Sequence record: MZ311865.1
Origin: Escherichia phage vB_EcoM_LNA2
DNA: 64,000 nucleotides
Reading direction: 5' to 3' (one strand)
Shown: positions 40,131 through 46,597 of the stretch, in pieces
How positions within the stretch are numbered: position 1 is the first letter of the stretch
Layout of the letters: every line of letters begins with the position of its first letter
The notes under the pieces: model-generated
Database searches by the model: none
Told to the model about the DNA's origin: nothing
Seen by the model: only the letters and a program-made list of their open reading frames with translations
Translations under genes and position numbers: made by a program

Positions 40131-40160
40131 ATAGTATCACACATCCATGTGTTTGTAAAC
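40131..40160 (-). promoter_or_regulatory. Early-type promoter for the alt.-1-like gene
   Basis: Minus strand GTTTAC, 18 bp, TACTAT; about 30 bp upstream of the corrected ATG. Confidence 0.55.
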
Positions 40161-42247
40161 TATCCTTGGACAAATTTAAACGGAACTGATTCTAAATCCA
40201 TTAAAGATGCTAACAATTTCAAACCTTTAGGTGCACTAGTTTTTTCTACAAATGAGGCAAAAGATACCGGCTCATCTGATTCGATTTCACCAGTCATAGC
40301 AACTACCTCGCCTGTTTCCATGAGAACATCACCATCGTAAATGACAGCTTCGTCCAACTGGTCCGAGGACATGACTTCAGCTTGAATAAATTTAAGGTTG
40401 GATTCTAAACCTGCACCGGTGTCAGATGACGCATCTGTAATTTTATTTATCTGCAAGAGAATGCCTCTAGGCAAAATAATTTCTTGCTCATTAGGGTGAT
40501 TACTCAACTGTCCTGGATAAATCACGTTAACTTTATGGGCACCATCAATAGCCCATCCAACGTTAACACGGATTTGTTCTGGTGCATGCATAGCTGTTCT
40601 TACTTGACTAGGAGAAATAGTAACACCTTCGTCATTATTATCAATGTTAAGCTCTTTGCGAACTTCTTCAGGAGCAAGTCCAAGGGCAACGTTCTCTTTA
40701 AACCCGCCGAAAATAATAGGAGCTAGTGAAGTGGAAACATAGTTTCTGAAGTAGAATACCTTATTTTTAACCATTGCTTCGTAAATAGGCATTCTGATAG
40801 ACTGGGCTCTATACAACGTTAGTCCTTCAGGTAAACGGTCTCCATTTAAAAACGCCGAATCAAGACCATCAATAGCGCGTTTAACTTCATCTTCATCTGC
40901 AACATCATAAAAATCCGGTTTATAACGGCCTAACAACATATTATTGATATCGGTATACGCAGAAGAGGCATATTCGCGAATAGCTCGTTTTTCAGCAACA
41001 GAGTATTGTTTAGGGTCCCGATTCATTGTTATATTAAAGGTGCCTCTAGCCGATTCCCGTGCATAAGTATACATCACATTAGACAAGAACGCTGATTTAC
41101 GTTGTTTCCAAGTTCTTTCAGATACTTCAGCTAAAACGTCGTCGGGCAGTTGGAAATTATCACGTCTAAAATCTTCAAACCATTCGTCTTTAATAGAGTC
41201 TGCAATTTCATTTGCAGCTTCAACAAAAGCAGCTAATGCTTTAACAGATGTTGTTTTTTCAGTTTTAATTTTCTTAGCAAACTTTTCTAAAGTTGGCTTA
41301 ATAACACTACCATAAGAAACTTCATCGGCAAATCTAAAGGATTCATCAATACGATTATAAATCTTATTTTCGATATCAGCAACTAAAGTGCCTTTTGCTG
41401 TGGACGATGCTTGGGCTAGTACGATTTCATATGCTTCAGGAAGTAATTCGGCTGTAGCTGGGCCGCTAACTTCTTTAGCAGAATTTTCGTATTTCTGGAA
41501 TAACTCACCTTCTTGACGGTCAGCTTCTAAAGATTGACTTGCTGCAATAGCACGACGAGAAATTTTAGTACGAGCAATAACAGGCTTATCTTTACGTTTT
41601 TCTTCTACAGCAGCAATAGAACCAGCGATAGCCGTTTCTTTGGTGACCATTTCGCCAGTCTTTTTACTCACATAAACTTCGCCAACATCAGAATCTACTT
41701 TCGTGTACAACTCTGTGTTAATGTTAGGGATGCCTTTAATATCTTCAATGTTAGCATTTTTACGAACCATCATCACATAGGTGTGTTTACCTGTGAATTG
41801 ATACATTGCCGACAATACTTTAAAACGACCACCGGTTTTAGTAGAAACTAAACGAGCAAGAAGAGTTTGAAGTTGTTGTCCGCGTCCTTTCAATTTCTTG
41901 GTAGGGAATCGGAACAGAACTGCATCCATACGAAGAGCTTTAACCTGTTCATATACTGTATTGAAAATGGTGTTGATTGCATCAATAGGAGCAGGACCAA
42001 GGCCATTTTTCAATTCAGCGAGATTACCCTTTTCAGACAGACTCATAATAACAACATGAGCGTATTTGTCGCCAAGTTTAACTTGTTTTACAGCATCGCC
42101 TTCAGAAAGGTAAGAGAATAAGCGAACTACGATGTTTGTATCAACATCACCAATTTTCCAGACTTGTGGAACTTTAGCTTTAGGGTTCAAATTGACGACA
42201 GGAAGACTGCCTTCAGATTCAAACACTTCATTTAATTGTTCAGACAT
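40160..42247 (-). CDS. alt: Alt ADP-ribosyltransferase (packaged RNA polymerase modifier)
   Basis: 695 aa; T4 position between 54 and 30; similar length to T4 Alt. Confidence 0.88.
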   Translation of the reverse strand: MSEQLNEVFESEGSLPVVNLNPKAKVPQVWKIGDVDTNIVVRLFSYLSEGDAVKQVKLGDKYAHVVIMSLSEKGNLAELKNGLGPAPIDAINTIFNTVYEQVKALRMDAVLFRFPTKKLKGRGQQLQTLLARLVSTKTGGRFKVLSAMYQFTGKHTYVMMVRKNANIEDIKGIPNINTELYTKVDSDVGEVYVSKKTGEMVTKETAIAGSIAAVEEKRKDKPVIARTKISRRAIAASQSLEADRQEGELFQKYENSAKEVSGPATAELLPEAYEIVLAQASSTAKGTLVADIENKIYNRIDESFRFADEVSYGSVIKPTLEKFAKKIKTEKTTSVKALAAFVEAANEIADSIKDEWFEDFRRDNFQLPDDVLAEVSERTWKQRKSAFLSNVMYTYARESARGTFNITMNRDPKQYSVAEKRAIREYASSAYTDINNMLLGRYKPDFYDVADEDEVKRAIDGLDSAFLNGDRLPEGLTLYRAQSIRMPIYEAMVKNKVFYFRNYVSTSLAPIIFGGFKENVALGLAPEEVRKELNIDNNDEGVTISPSQVRTAMHAPEQIRVNVGWAIDGAHKVNVIYPGQLSNHPNEQEIILPRGILLQINKITDASSDTGAGLESNLKFIQAEVMSSDQLDEAVIYDGDVLMETGEVVAMTGEIESDEPVSFASFVEKTSAPKGLKLLASLMDLESVPFKFVQG

Positions 42248-42303: not shown

Positions 42304-42491
42304 TAATCCACAATCGGGAGCAAAGTACGATAAACTTCAAAATTAGGGCCTTTTTCGTACTTATCAAAATTGTCCATAAAAATATTATAGGAATCGTTAT
42401 TAGGAAAATCTAATATAATCTGAGAGCAAGAGGTGGAAACATCTCCACCATCCTTCTTAGCTACAATAACTGTTTCTAAATAAGCTTTCAT
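42303..42491 (-). CDS. Hypothetical small protein between ligase and alt
   Basis: ATG overlaps the ligase stop (TAATG), 62 aa; ORF-track start is GTG further upstream; hairpin terminator overlaps its stop. Confidence 0.55.
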   Translation of the reverse strand: MKAYLETVIVAKKDGGDVSTSCSQIILDFPNNDSYNIFMDNFDKYEKGPNFEVYRTLLPIVD

Positions 42492-43984
42492 TATAAACCT
42501 GTCTGGGACCACGGTCCAAATACGTCTTCAAATGAATCCGCTTCTGTTTTATCAAAACGGAACCCTTTAATAATTGGAAGGAAAATACCTACAGTGCCTT
42601 CACGGCCTTTAGAATGAACCCAACCATTACATTCACAATCAGCGATACGTCCGATTAATTTACCTTCACGAGCTTCGGTCATTAATCGTTCACGGTCTAA
42701 ATCATGACGCTCGTCTAAAGGAATAAGAACCTTTACACCGTCAACTGTTTTATGAGTTGTATCTTTAAACCCTGAACCACAATCGGTTGTAATACGACGA
42801 CAACGTGATACGAGTTCGACACCACCTAATTTGTTAGGGTCTTTAGAGTGTTCATAGTATCCTACAACTTCTAAAGCGATATCAATAACTTCTTTAAATT
42901 TAATTAGGTTCTTAGAGCGTTTGTTTTCCCAATATGAATCACGGTTTTTAAGGATAATACCTTCAAGACCTTGGTCAACATATTTTTTATAAACCACTTT
43001 AGCTTCGTCAAGATTACGAACTAACTGATTTTCAATTGGCTCAATTCGCTTAAAGCCTTCAGCCATATTTTCAAGAGCAGCAAAACGAACATCGTATTTC
43101 TGACCTTTAATTTTGCCATCAGAATAGACTTCATCTAAAGGAACATAGTCCCAGGCTTGAAGAACCATACCTTCCGCTTCTTTAGGAGAAATAGTCCCTT
43201 GAAGAGATTTATTTGCTAAACCATTTGAAGTGCTACGGTCTGCAACTCGTACTTCTTCGGATTCTTCATTATCACCAAATAAGAACGATAGGTCATTTCC
43301 TGAGCTCACAGCCTTTTTAATATCAAATGAATGATAAACTAATTCACCGTCGATTAAAACCCCATTAGGGTGTCTTTCACGAGCTTCTTTAGTCATTTCC
43401 ATTAGTTCATCCGCTAATAGAGTAAGACCATGGTATTCGTTACCGGCACGAGAAAAGAATTGAACGCCATCATCGCGAACTTCAGCGAAACAACGAGCAC
43501 CATCTGCCTTTAATTGGGCAAATGCAGGCCATTTAATATTTTTAGTAATCAATTTCTCATCATATGCAGATGCTAACATCTGTGGCTGCAATTGAATAAG
43601 TCCAGGCCACACCTTATTCGCGATAGACACTGAAGCACCTACTTCAAGGTCTCGCATCATTACACGACGAAGGACTTCTACATCGTCAGGTTTACCGTCA
43701 GCGATATAACCCATGAGCTCTTTAATTGCAGCATTACCAGTGAGTTTACGAGTGGCTAATGTGAACTCAATAAAATCCAACATGTCATCTAATTCAAGAA
43801 GACCATACGCTTGAGACCTTTCACCTGGTCCTGGCCATTTCTTAATATAATACTGGATACCACGTGCATATGTTAAACGATACACACGTTCAAGTAATTT
43901 GTTGTCCTTATTTTTCTTAAGGATTTCTTGTTTTGTTTTAGTAGAACCGATCGCAGCTATTTGGTTTAAAATATCTAAAATCAT
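42491..43984 (-). CDS. 30: ATP-dependent DNA ligase
   Basis: 497 aa; N-terminus nearly identical to T4 ligase (MILDILNQIAAIGSTK...); adenylation motif AQLKADGARCF. Confidence 0.96.
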   Translation of the reverse strand: MILDILNQIAAIGSTKTKQEILKKNKDNKLLERVYRLTYARGIQYYIKKWPGPGERSQAYGLLELDDMLDFIEFTLATRKLTGNAAIKELMGYIADGKPDDVEVLRRVMMRDLEVGASVSIANKVWPGLIQLQPQMLASAYDEKLITKNIKWPAFAQLKADGARCFAEVRDDGVQFFSRAGNEYHGLTLLADELMEMTKEARERHPNGVLIDGELVYHSFDIKKAVSSGNDLSFLFGDNEESEEVRVADRSTSNGLANKSLQGTISPKEAEGMVLQAWDYVPLDEVYSDGKIKGQKYDVRFAALENMAEGFKRIEPIENQLVRNLDEAKVVYKKYVDQGLEGIILKNRDSYWENKRSKNLIKFKEVIDIALEVVGYYEHSKDPNKLGGVELVSRCRRITTDCGSGFKDTTHKTVDGVKVLIPLDERHDLDRERLMTEAREGKLIGRIADCECNGWVHSKGREGTVGIFLPIIKGFRFDKTEADSFEDVFGPWSQTGL

Positions 43985-44250
43985 TTGATGTCCTCGATTT
44001 TGGTTACGGTTCTATTATAAGCCACTTCATCTAGAAGCGATTTCAGCGTTTTCTGATAAGTGGTAATCCATTTACCGAGCCCTTCAACATAGTATTCTGA
44101 AATGTAGATGAACCCTTGTTCAACACACTCTTTAAATATTTCTGCGTCTTTTACTGAACGAAACAATGGCCAGTCTCGAAAGAACATGTTAACGTGACCG
44201 TAGTCACGTGTGGTGTTTTTGCCATCTGTAATATCATGAACTACAAACAT
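43981..44250 (-). CDS. Hypothetical protein (30.1-like)
   Basis: 89 aa ORF with ATG; overlaps ligase start. Confidence 0.7.
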   Translation of the reverse strand: MFVVHDITDGKNTTRDYGHVNMFFRDWPLFRSVKDAEIFKECVEQGFIYISEYYVEGLGKWITTYQKTLKSLLDEVAYNRTVTKIEDIK

Positions 44251-44259
44251 AAGTATCCC

Positions 44260-45075
44260 TTAACAATTTATAGACCAAGTCCATTTAGACGAATCTAAAG
44301 GAAAGTTTTGAATCGTCCACCATGGCCGCATATCGGTTGGTCCTGGAGTTCGCCAGGTATACGGATTCGACGGAGCGCCAATTTGATTAGGCCATGCGCC
44401 TGGACTTGTTGCACCAGATTCTTTAAGCAAATCTGCCAATCGTTTTAAAAGGTCTTCATGATCTGAATCTGAATTATGCTTGGGTGGAACCAAACGAGAT
44501 TCAATATCATCCCACGTGTGTACACGTTGTGCAGTACGAGGAATATCATCACGTTCACCACGAGCCAACCAATAAATCGGTACATTAAGAATTTCTGCTG
44601 CATGGTCACAGTGATGAGCTAAATCGTCAACGTAACAAATCACGTTATATTTTGTTTTAGCTAGTTCAAATAATTGTTCCTTTGACGAATCGTGACCACA
44701 CATCATTACTTCAGAAAAAGCGCCTGGGAACAAAGCATTCAAATTAAATTGTCTATTCAATCGAGCATCAATTGAATCACCTAGCGCCGTCACGGCTACA
44801 AAATTATAGTCTTCTTTTAGTTTATTGATAACTCGAAGAGCATCCGAATAAGGCGCTAAGTAACGAATAAAATCAGAGCGATTATATTTTTCTATTAATT
44901 GTTTACCGAGGTTATCATCGGTATTGAATAGTTTACCAGGAGAAATAAATTTTTCGTCCTGAATCATTTTTAAAATATGTTCTAATGGAAGATTATATTT
45001 TTGGGCAAAATAAGGAAGTCCAGATTGCCAGCTTAAACATACACCATCAATATCAGTCAAAATAGTAGGCTTCAT
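44260..45075 (-). CDS. HAD-superfamily phosphatase-like protein, possibly 5'(3')-deoxyribonucleotidase-like (30.2 position)
   Basis: 271 aa; N-terminal HAD motif I ILTDIDGV and later hhhhDD motif (ICYVDD). Confidence 0.65.
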   Translation of the reverse strand: MKPTILTDIDGVCLSWQSGLPYFAQKYNLPLEHILKMIQDEKFISPGKLFNTDDNLGKQLIEKYNRSDFIRYLAPYSDALRVINKLKEDYNFVAVTALGDSIDARLNRQFNLNALFPGAFSEVMMCGHDSSKEQLFELAKTKYNVICYVDDLAHHCDHAAEILNVPIYWLARGERDDIPRTAQRVHTWDDIESRLVPPKHNSDSDHEDLLKRLADLLKESGATSPGAWPNQIGAPSNPYTWRTPGPTDMRPWWTIQNFPLDSSKWTWSINC

Positions 45076-45530
45076 AAAGAGTCTCTTAATAGGTTTAACA
45101 CATCAATAAATTCAGCTTCGGTTAATATTGTATCATCTTTTGTTAGGTGGCTGGCCATGCTGTGCTTCAAAATTTTTCCTTTAGAGGCTTGTAAGGCATC
45201 GCGAAACCCCTTGTTTTGGATCGCTGCTTCAAAATATGCATTTGTATATAATTCTTTCCATGCTTCAGAGTATCTTGAAAATGGAACTCCTAACCAGAAG
45301 AGAGTCCCACTGTCCTGAGCTCTTGCGTAAGACCTTCCAGCTTGCTGTGCAGCCAATCCAGACAACCCAAATATACGTCTTTGTTGTTCAACATTTTTCA
45401 CCTTACATCCTTGGAGAAATCCTTCAAGACCTCCGAATTGAATACCATCCATAACAAAAGGCCATTGAGCAAAGTTACTTAATGCACATGATGGCCATTT
45501 GAAATTACTTCTTATTTCTAATTCAGACAT
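45072..45530 (-). CDS. NADAR (YbiA/DUF1768)-like protein, putative ADP-ribose-processing enzyme (30.3 position)
   Basis: 152 aa from the ATG at 45530 (ORF-track start is GTG); N-terminal SNFKWP...ALSNFAQWPF pattern typical of NADAR domains. Confidence 0.55.
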   Translation of the reverse strand: MSELEIRSNFKWPSCALSNFAQWPFVMDGIQFGGLEGFLQGCKVKNVEQQRRIFGLSGLAAQQAGRSYARAQDSGTLFWLGVPFSRYSEAWKELYTNAYFEAAIQNKGFRDALQASKGKILKHSMASHLTKDDTILTEAEFIDVLNLLRDSL

Positions 45531-45741
45531 CTTTAACACTTATAATTTCAACATCAGCCCAATGACCGTATCCAGGTATACGGTCTTCGATAGATAAATT
45601 TCTGTCATTTTTAGGCATTTTAATTGACGTAACGTATGGTTCTAAACGGTTTTCTGCATAATGTGGAAAAACGTCTGTTACACGATAAGTAACTTCAATC
45701 ATTTCCGTACCAAACAATTTCTGGATTAATTTATTCAACAT
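45523..45741 (-). CDS. Hypothetical protein
   Basis: 72 aa ORF with ATG. Confidence 0.55.
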   Translation of the reverse strand: MLNKLIQKLFGTEMIEVTYRVTDVFPHYAENRLEPYVTSIKMPKNDRNLSIEDRIPGYGHWADVEIISVKDV

Positions 45742-45928
45742 GTTTCAACCCTTTAATAGGAGATAACTCTTTACCCATACGTATGTCAGAAGTCCAATCA
45801 ACCCATTGAACAGCATACGCTTCATTGATAATTCCAGCGGCGGTTTTAAATTCAGGGAGAACTTTAAAAATCACCCCAGGAATTCCAACACCTTTTAATT
45901 GGACTGTTTGTGCTATTAAAAATTTCAT
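45731..45928 (-). CDS. Hypothetical protein
   Basis: 65 aa ORF with ATG. Confidence 0.55.
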   Translation of the reverse strand: MKFLIAQTVQLKGVGIPGVIFKVLPEFKTAAGIINEAYAVQWVDWTSDIRMGKELSPIKGLKHVE

Positions 45929-45982
45929 ATTTTTCCACTTACTAAAGAAATCATTATACTCTAATCCGTCCTTGGATGTACA

Positions 45983-46597
45983 CTACTTAATGAAATTAAT
46001 TTCTACCGGATGAACAACAGGTTGAGCAGTGATATATTGAGTAATTGCTTTCATGACTAGAGCTTCAGAACCAGGATTTTTCTCAACGAATTCACGTGCT
46101 AGGTTATGAGCTTCAAGTTCACTTAGTAAACCACTTCGTTGACATCCACGGTCTTGAGTACCCTGTTCAGATAAAAAGGCGACGATGTATTTTTCATCGT
46201 CATACGGTTTAGACGGTTGAGCAAATGTTCCTTTACTTCCAAAAGGAGAGTTATGACGCCACATCACGCCGTTAGGAGTTTCAACCTTCGTATATTCGTG
46301 TGGGCCATTTTTCTTAGTTTCTTGATGTGGAACTTCGTGGACCTTAGGGTTAGGACATTCAATAAAATGCTCATCTAAATCGGTCGAGAATATTAAAGAA
46401 AAACAATTACTAAATTTACCAACACCTGCCTGATAAATTTTACCTTCAGACGTTCTAATTTCACAAACCGAGCCGGCATCAGTAACTTCTAAAACTTCAA
46501 AAGGCTCGATAAGGTCATATGAGAACATGTTTTTAAGGCGTGGAGTAATATCCCCATTTTTAAAATTCATTTTATAAAAAGTATTAACTTTAAACAT
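45983..46597 (-). CDS. Hypothetical protein
   Basis: 204 aa ORF; RBS GAGGAAA; UUCG hairpin immediately upstream; His-containing segment NPKVHEVPHQETKKNGPHEY; no family recognised. Confidence 0.7.
   Translation of the reverse strand: MFKVNTFYKMNFKNGDITPRLKNMFSYDLIEPFEVLEVTDAGSVCEIRTSEGKIYQAGVGKFSNCFSLIFSTDLDEHFIECPNPKVHEVPHQETKKNGPHEYTKVETPNGVMWRHNSPFGSKGTFAQPSKPYDDEKYIVAFLSEQGTQDRGCQRSGLLSELEAHNLAREFVEKNPGSEALVMKAITQYITAQPVVHPVEINFIK

Follow-up and report, generated by a model that had tools for sequence, protein, structure and literature searches.

The analysed stretch of DNA (the window) comprises 64,000 nucleotides of Escherichia phage vB_EcoM_LNA2 (MZ311865.1). The part of it described here runs from alt to gene 30.5; its genes all lie on the minus strand and are tightly packed. 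They are listed here with the features around them, by position in the window.

40160..42247, minus strand: alt ADP-ribosyltransferase (Pfam PF03496), given as context only
42491..43984, minus strand: gp30 ATP-dependent DNA ligase (Pfam PF01068)
43981..44250, minus strand: ortholog of T4 30.1, DUF3045, 89 aa (Pfam PF11243, E 1.4e-26)
44260-45075, minus strand: gp30.2 open reading frame, 271 aa, as read in the sequence
45072..45075, minus strand: ATGA overlap of the adfN stop with the 30.2 start, read directly in the sequence
45072..45530, minus strand: adfN, the ortholog of T4 gene 30.3, 152 aa counted from the ATG
45523..45741, minus strand: 30.4 ortholog, 72 aa (phrog_2042), its 3' end overlapping the adfN start by 8 nt
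45731..45928, minus strand: 30.5 ortholog, 65 aa (phrog_1690 and synteny), the first gene in the packed run
45953..45982, minus strand: candidate sigma-70-like promoter 5' of 30.5, TGTACA-18-TATAAT, with 10/12 matches in a consensus scan (a candidate by consensus only)

This order agrees with that annotated in T4 (alt / alt.1 / 30 / 30.1 / 30.2 / 30.3 / 30.4 / 30.5), and the run is the early operon 30.5-30.4-30.3-30.2-30.1-ligase of an RB69-like Mosigvirus. Over the 1.9 kb surrounding adfN and 30.2 the window is 98% identical to Escherichia phage vB_EcoM_SA79RD (Mosigvirus, the genus of RB69), in whose record a promoter is annotated at the equivalent spot upstream of 30.5. The gp30.2 protein is 99% identical to that of RB69, which marks the window phage as RB69-type. 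DNA resembling the adfN/30.2 region is present in 719 phage records.

An earlier description of these two genes, made from the letters of the window and a list of open reading frames (the sequence-only reading), had proposed a NADAR protein next to a HAD phosphatase. Both reading frames, with their coordinates, their lengths and the short motifs quoted for them, are confirmed on the minus strand, and ligase and alt adjoin them downstream, as it had noted. An in-frame GTG at 45539 would lengthen the adfN product to 155 aa; the ATG is the start used in the T4 annotation. The sharing of ATGA between the adfN stop and the 30.2 start suggests translational coupling of the two genes.

The adfN product: an ortholog of T4 gp30.3

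The 152-aa protein matches the Pfam family PF08010 (Phage_30_3) at 231.3 bits (E 3.8e-69; curated cut-off 36 bits), over positions 1-138 of the 138 in the profile. It aligns without gaps to T4 gp30.3, a protein of equal length (152 aa), at 96% identity. The six substitutions from the window to T4 AdfN (K11R, S74R, E89P, I120V, M125I and H128G) leave the catalytic residues unaffected. The stretch from which a NADAR domain had been called, 'ALSNFAQWPF', is residues 16-25. The columns of this LSNF-type motif, like those of the HAD-type motifs in the 271-aa protein, are invariant across 60-67 homologues, and the quoted motifs of both proteins are far beyond chance. Likewise invariant, in an alignment of 67 homologues, are the catalytic residues E36, K43 and H123, encoded as follows.

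45423-45425, minus strand: codon for AdfN catalytic residue E36
45402-45404, minus strand: codon for AdfN catalytic residue K43
45162-45164, minus strand: codon for AdfN catalytic residue H123

An AF2 model of the adfN product built with the 67 homologues has a mean pLDDT of 94.5 and a pTM of 0.89. It places H123 directly after the last beta strand (residues 120-122) and has an intact C-terminal helix (residues 138-151). The first three Foldseek matches of this model are all NADAR structures: YbiA (2b3w, E 7.9e-5), the Phytophthora NADAR (PnNADAR) with ADP-ribose (8bau), and the Geobacter lovleyi NADAR (8bat); the remaining matches have a probability of 0.02 or less. A single-sequence search of the PDB with gp30.3 found nothing. 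Searched with a profile of the gp30.3 family (41 sequences), the PDB gave E. coli YbiA as the sole significant match (E 0.0014), in an alignment that spans the SNF...E...Q..K motif and puts E36 and K43 on the YbiA motif. As the sequence-only reading had it, the adfN product is a NADAR-fold protein, and its ortholog in T4 is gp30.3/AdfN. It shares with T4 AdfN the location between 30.4 and 30.2, the E36/K43/H123 set and the C-terminal helix; the two differ in the genome that carries them, Tequatrovirus for T4 and Mosigvirus for the window. With the DarG1-type NADAR antitoxins and YbiA (8bat, 8bau, 2b3w) it shares the NADAR fold and the SNF...E..F/Q..K active-site motif, but at 16-19% identity, and it has neither a cognate toxin gene nor an N-terminal extension. 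In PHROGs, the gp30.3 family carries the label 'unknown function', and so does that of gp30.2.

The function of adfN is already known. Papers of 2024-2025 describe T4 gp30.3 as a DNA glycohydrolase that acts on guanine-ADP-ribose and overcomes DarTG1. In the work of Schuller and colleagues it strips ADP-ribose from DNA guanine, not thymine, in vitro, yet leaves DarT1 toxicity in cells unrelieved; the last-strand catalytic residue is given there as His for phage gp30.3 proteins, Asp for the BC4488/DarG1 group and Glu for YbiA (PMC11125620). H123 of the window protein is this histidine, by which phage NADARs are told apart from the other two groups. Johannesman et al. (Nat Commun 2025, PMC11825919) named the protein AdfN, for anti-DarT factor NADAR, and found it both necessary and sufficient for the DarTG1 resistance of T-even phages. 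In their work ADP-ribose removal from DNA by T4 AdfN depends on E36, deletion of the gene abolishes DarTG1 resistance, E36A and K43A impair the protein, and AdfN shows no binding to DarT1. For full anti-DarTG1 activity an intact C-terminal helix counts as a requirement. Full AdfN-T4 function was seen only in T-even infection, and the authors suggest that another phage protein may be needed (PMC11825919). The link that had been drawn from the NADAR domain to reversal of guanine ADP-ribosylation is thus the published activity of the T4 ortholog (PMC11825919, PMC11125620). The proposed trial of the protein against DarT has likewise been carried out already, with T4 gp30.3, for which DarTG1 resistance depends on AdfN.

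The 271-aa protein: a predicted HAD-fold enzyme

The second gene encodes a predicted catalytic domain followed by a tail, with the following features.

44476..45075, minus strand: predicted gp30.2 catalytic domain, residues 1-200, with a HAD Rossmannoid core and a helical C1-type cap (about residues 16-86)
45052-45054 and 45046-45048, minus strand: codons for D8 and D10, motif I
44788-44790, minus strand: codon for T96, motif II
44680-44682, minus strand: codon for K132, motif III
44623-44628, minus strand: codons for D150 and D151, motif IV
44260..44475, minus strand: tail, residues 201-271 and the stop codon, with one predicted helix (202-219) and then disorder

The two motifs that had led to the HAD call are residues 5-12 ('ILTDIDGV') and 146-151 ('ICYVDD'). 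An alignment of 60 homologues shows no substitution at D8, D10, K132, D150 or D151 and keeps T96 in at least 90%; D8, D10 and K132 are still invariant among 118 distant relatives. The AF2 model is confident over residues 1-220, with pLDDT above 90 in the core, and shows the Rossmannoid HAD fold. Its cap, inserted between strands 1 and 2, consists of helices at residues 16-26, 32-40, 46-49, 54-65, 68-72 and 77-86, and holds aromatic residues that are invariant in the 60-homologue alignment (W16, F43, F50 and Y64). Capped C1 HADs reportedly take small molecules in general, while those with macromolecular substrates, PNKP among them, are said to be capless; an Asp at the +2 position is likewise said to mark a phosphoryl-transfer HAD, not a dehalogenase (both points are ascribed to Burroughs et al., from 2006).

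Searches with curated models gave weaker results. Against Pfam HAD_2 the protein scores 15.5 bits (E 0.019), below the cut-off of 23.8, and the sole NCBIfam match, TIGR01428, reaches 12.7 bits where 125.4 would be needed. A PDB sequence search with gp30.2 alone yields noise only, and the family profile finds nothing significant there, its best HAD match being cdN (2jao, E 0.4). Of the profile matches expected for the two proteins, then, the one for NADAR was obtained and the one for HAD was not. Existing curated models do not reach a family as divergent as that of gp30.2, so that the HAD assignment is carried by fold and motifs, and on those grounds the HAD call of the sequence-only reading is upheld: gp30.2 is, by its predicted fold and conserved residues, a HAD-fold enzyme. 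T4 gp30.2 (PHROG 420) is its ortholog, at 71% identity over 262 aligned residues, mostly within the first ~200.

Relatives of gp30.2 and its variable tail

An exhaustive profile search recovers 1081 representatives of the gp30.2 family (one per cluster at 50% identity) at E <= 0.001. When 118 of these were compared with Pfam, 35 matched NT5C (best E 4.2e-10), 21 matched HAD_2 and 19 matched Hydrolase; among the 60 close homologues, eight match NT5C weakly. Among these relatives NT5C (PF06941, the 5'(3')-deoxyribonucleotidases) appears to be the one specific Pfam family to come up. Relative P0370 scores 29.3 bits against PF06941, for which the cut-off is 24.8; the window gp30.2 has no match to PF06941 at E <=0.1. 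The link is therefore transitive, by way of the relatives, and we term the protein NT5C-like rather than a member of that family. The nucleotidase-type phosphatase that had been proposed accordingly has indirect backing, from the 35 distant relatives that match NT5C, which does not extend to a match of the window protein itself.

The known NT5C enzymes (human and mouse cdN and mdN; PDB 6g2n, 2jao) differ from the window protein in having no 70-residue tail. Most of the 1081 representatives are about 190-215 aa long, a length at which the tail is absent. Across homologues, protein lengths run from 196 to 347 aa, and the tails are highly variable in length and sequence and cannot be aligned. In the window protein the disordered part of the tail is rich in Trp and Pro, contains 'TWRTPGP', and has a pLDDT below 50 over residues 227-271. 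It has diverged from the T4 tail and does not have the 'GIEYLYNRPT' element of the latter. The possibility that it is a frameshifted T4-type tail was considered and rejected, as the sequence holds no such remnant.

Names attached to gp30.2 homologues are few: one JGI entry reads 5'(3')-deoxyribonucleotidase, and two GenBank phage records read 'HAD-like hydrolase'. A full-text literature search for 'gp30.2' found no published function, nor were biochemical data found for any homologue. In the proteins that fuse this HAD domain to another (P0291, P0326, P0237 and P0280) the partner domains are unrecognisable. The gp30.2 protein belongs to a very widespread family of phage enzymes whose public names are generic or automated, a piece of conserved 'dark matter'.

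Insertion data from T4

Transposon insertion data for T4 are given in the HIDEN-SEQ preprint (10.1101/2025.11.20.689424, Extended Data Table 6). Under DarTG1, insertions in 30.3 are lost (log2FC -7.25, adjusted p 0), those in 30.2 are neutral (log2FC -0.12, p 0.61, 71 sites), those in alt are neutral, and those in 30.4 are mildly depleted (log2FC -1.79), probably through a polar effect on 30.3. Gene 30.2 is non-essential, with insertions at 72/72 TA sites; the ligase gene is essential. Insertions in 30.2 are also neutral under DarTG2 and in minimal versus rich medium (10.1101/2025.11.20.689424). As no T4 30.2 phenotype is on record in the screened conditions (LB, M9, DarTG1 and DarTG2), any physiological substrate named for gp30.2 is a guess.

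These data bear on the target of AdfN as well. Iyer et al. (2022) argued, on the basis of genomic neighbourhoods, that small ADP-ribose derivatives are the main targets of phage NADARs, and described NADARs co-expressed with ADP-ribosyltransferases (ARTs) in T4-like phages. The window NADAR might then act mainly on targets other than those of DarT1, either soluble immune signals derived from ADP-ribose or the adducts left by Alt, ModA and ModB. The position of alt, about 3 kb from adfN, would fit, as would the failure of AdfN-T4 to rescue DarT1 toxicity in uninfected cells. Against this, T4 AdfN has been shown directly to remove ADP-ribose from DNA in an E36-dependent manner, DarTG1 resistance is lost when the gene is deleted, and 30.3 insertions vanish completely under DarTG1. 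The neutrality of alt insertions under DarTG1 also leaves the proximity of that gene, to which the sequence-only reading had attached weight, without demonstrated meaning; a functional link was not found. A main activity on targets other than DarT1-modified DNA we consider very unlikely; AdfN may nonetheless have an additional substrate besides DarT1-modified DNA.

Pairing of adfN and 30.2

The sequence-only reading had raised the idea of a counter-defence or salvage pair, and a two-enzyme module of this kind can be put in specific terms: gp30.2 could be the T-even factor on which AdfN relies, or could clear away what AdfN sets free, be it ADP-ribose or a phosphorylated product. Several observations would suit it, namely the ATGA stop/start overlap, the restriction of full AdfN-T4 function to T-even infection (with the authors' suggestion of another phage protein), and the presence of 30.2 in RB69, a phage that ectopic AdfN rescues. 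In addition, where a gp30.3-type NADAR lies near a HAD gene in viral loci collected from the HAD side, it is always on the same strand, 0-1.5 kb upstream. Such a neighbour is found within 6 kb in 36/78 of these loci, however, and is absent nearby in the other 42; starting from the NADAR side, a HAD gene lies within 6 kb in only 19/80. Roughly ten complete T4-like genomes carry both genes some 55-60 kb apart. Together with the neutrality of 30.2 beside the loss of 30.3 under DarTG1 (-0.12 against -7.25), these counts largely refute the module, to which we give very little credence. A functional NADAR-HAD pair is thus not supported, the two genes being separated in most related phages, and gp30.2 as the T-even factor needed by AdfN is rejected on the same synteny and TnSeq data. 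The adjacency of adfN and 30.2 appears, from the loci compared, to follow the general gene order of T4-like phages. The ATGA overlap and the published hint of a T-even co-factor leave some room for a link between AdfN and gp30.2 beyond the conditions of the TnSeq screen.

The gene that accompanies the HAD gene most regularly is instead DNA ligase, found downstream of it in 71/78 loci from T4-like phages of enterobacteria, Aeromonas and Acinetobacter. A 43-kb contig that is not T4-like has an ATP-dependent ligase just downstream of a HAD 25% identical to gp30.2. One could imagine from the adjacent ligase that gp30.2 is an end-healing 3'-phosphatase, resembling the HAD domain of PNKP, that prepares nicks for ligation. 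The model speaks against it, with a multi-helix cap directly after motif I where PNKP-type enzymes are capless, and so do the relatives, among which (118 distant ones) NT5C matches outnumber PNKP matches 35 to 1. End healing is in T4 already performed by PseT. Moreover, a distant HAD subgroup, examined in 80 environmental loci, mostly has PhoH (53 loci), a glutaredoxin, RNase H and the clamp loader beside it, and no ligase family is among its 14 commonest neighbour families; we therefore take the adjacency of HAD and ligase to reflect shared gene order and not functional coupling. The T4 ligase, finally, is essential where 30.2 is dispensable. An end-healing role is in our estimate very unlikely.

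Proposed roles of the two enzymes

The reading that we prefer, with a probability of roughly 85%, is that adfN and 30.2 encode two independent, co-transcribed enzymes, AdfN and an NT5C-like HAD enzyme that does not serve it as a cofactor. For AdfN the mechanism has an experimental basis in the 96%-identical T4 protein and is extended to the window protein by orthology. Host DarT1 would ADP-ribosylate guanine in single-stranded phage DNA and so block replication; AdfN would cleave the bond between guanine and ADP-ribose, using E36, K43 and H123, and replication would be restored. Since it restores replication, AdfN would serve the phage that carries it as an orphan 'antitoxin'.

The gp30.2 protein is predicted to be a Mg2+-dependent HAD phosphomonoesterase, with one Asp of the DxD motif as nucleophile and the Asp at +2 as acid/base. 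Its helical cap should close over a small substrate. Because of the distant kinship to NT5C, a nucleotide-type substrate seems most likely, such as a (deoxy)nucleoside monophosphate, or else a related phospho-sugar. The disordered, fast-evolving tail may serve as a docking peptide. Nothing at gp30.2 suggests a new kind of system; it looks to be an ordinary HAD enzyme, conserved and dispensable, with an intact predicted active site.

A broader reading joins several of these elements and would put gp30.2 at the head of a very large and so far nameless NT5C-like branch of phage nucleotidases, as its first member, with a conditional role and a tail that docks it onto a partner from the host or the phage. 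We regard the conjunction as unlikely. The branch so defined would be the 1081 clusters, spread across the T4 superfamily including marine myoviruses. Roles that can be imagined for it include destruction of a nucleotide-derived immune signal and editing of the dNMP pool to counter a defence that targets nucleotides; another option is a context-dependent helper of AdfN that was missed by a single TnSeq condition.

An intact adfN in an RB69-like phage

The adfN gene of RB69 has a T insertion at position 411 that introduces a premature stop codon and shortens the protein by its last 15 residues; RB69 is sensitive to DarTG1 because its AdfN is truncated in this way (PMC11825919). The corresponding site in the window, from a three-way DNA alignment, is the following.

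45120..45121, minus strand: site of the extra T of RB69 (gene position 411)

Here the window and T4 both read 'AAC-CGAAG' where RB69 has 'AACTTGAAG'. The RB69-type insertion is absent from the window gene, which is uninterrupted. As adfN is intact at the frameshift site, we predict that the AdfN of the window phage is active and that the phage resists DarTG1, unlike reference RB69. A prediction of DarTG1 resistance where RB69 is sensitive would be useful in choosing or engineering phages, and the practical value of the result is one of annotation: an intact adfN in an RB69-like phage as against the frameshifted copy in RB69. The two phages share a genus, and their DNA near the adfN 3' end is almost identical.

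The adfN region and DarTG1

The adfN gene, the T4 30.3 ortholog encoding a NADAR-fold DNA ADP-ribosylglycohydrolase predicted to counter host DarTG1, was compared with its RB69 counterpart (L245, 6268-6681).

45120-45121, minus strand: site in adfN corresponding to the RB69 T insertion
45523-45741: 30.4, which shares 8 nt with the start of adfN
45167-45394, minus strand, alternative frame: region within adfN corresponding to 30.3' as annotated in T4

The RB69 copy is truncated by insertion of a T, whereas adfN of the window, although from an RB69-like Mosigvirus, lacks the insertion, from which resistance to DarTG1 is predicted. Judged from this sequence comparison, the window phage would be a DarTG1-resistant relative of RB69, the DarTG1-sensitive reference phage.

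In published T4 transposon sequencing, insertions in 30.4 are significantly depleted under DarTG1 (log2FC -1.79, adjusted p 0.014). The simplest reading of this depletion is that adfN is affected through polarity or translational coupling, while a helper role for gp30.4 itself is a possible alternative. The internal, out-of-frame 30.3' (75 aa in T4) meets a stop at codon 34 of the same frame in the window. Hence this ORF has not been conserved, and 30.3' may not be a real gene. Separately, the Methods of PMC11125620, on the in vitro activity of T4 gp30.3, give the construct as "residues 1-208," which does not match the 152 aa length of that protein; the figure may count tags, refer to another phage protein, or be an error.

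Gene content upstream of 30.5

45983-46597, minus strand: 204-aa ORF, phrog_17531

Close relatives differ in the genes upstream of 30.5. The position of this ORF, which has no Pfam match, is occupied in T4 by the 95-aa 30.6 and in RB69 by that phage's own 30.6.

The gp30.2 family

44260-44475: residues 201-271 of the HAD-fold protein gp30.2, a disordered, Trp/Pro-rich tail
L074 7140-8285, and L076: HAD-ligase locus of a non-T4-like 43-kb contig

The tail turns over far faster than the catalytic core in both length and sequence: between the window and T4 the core is about 88% identical, as read off the alignment, and the tail is barely alignable. A semi-conserved "W-R-T-P-G" motif lies within it, and the tail may serve as a short linear docking motif.

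A distant subgroup carries E-D rather than D-D as motif IV, and occurs in very large numbers among environmental phage contigs (at least 578 matches); a gene for a PhoH-like ATPase adjoins it in 53 of 80 loci (L163-L242). The HAD protein of the non-T4-like contig is 25% identical to gp30.2, and an ATP-dependent DNA ligase (372 aa, KxDG motif) is encoded about 600 nt downstream, an order resembling that of T4-like phages.
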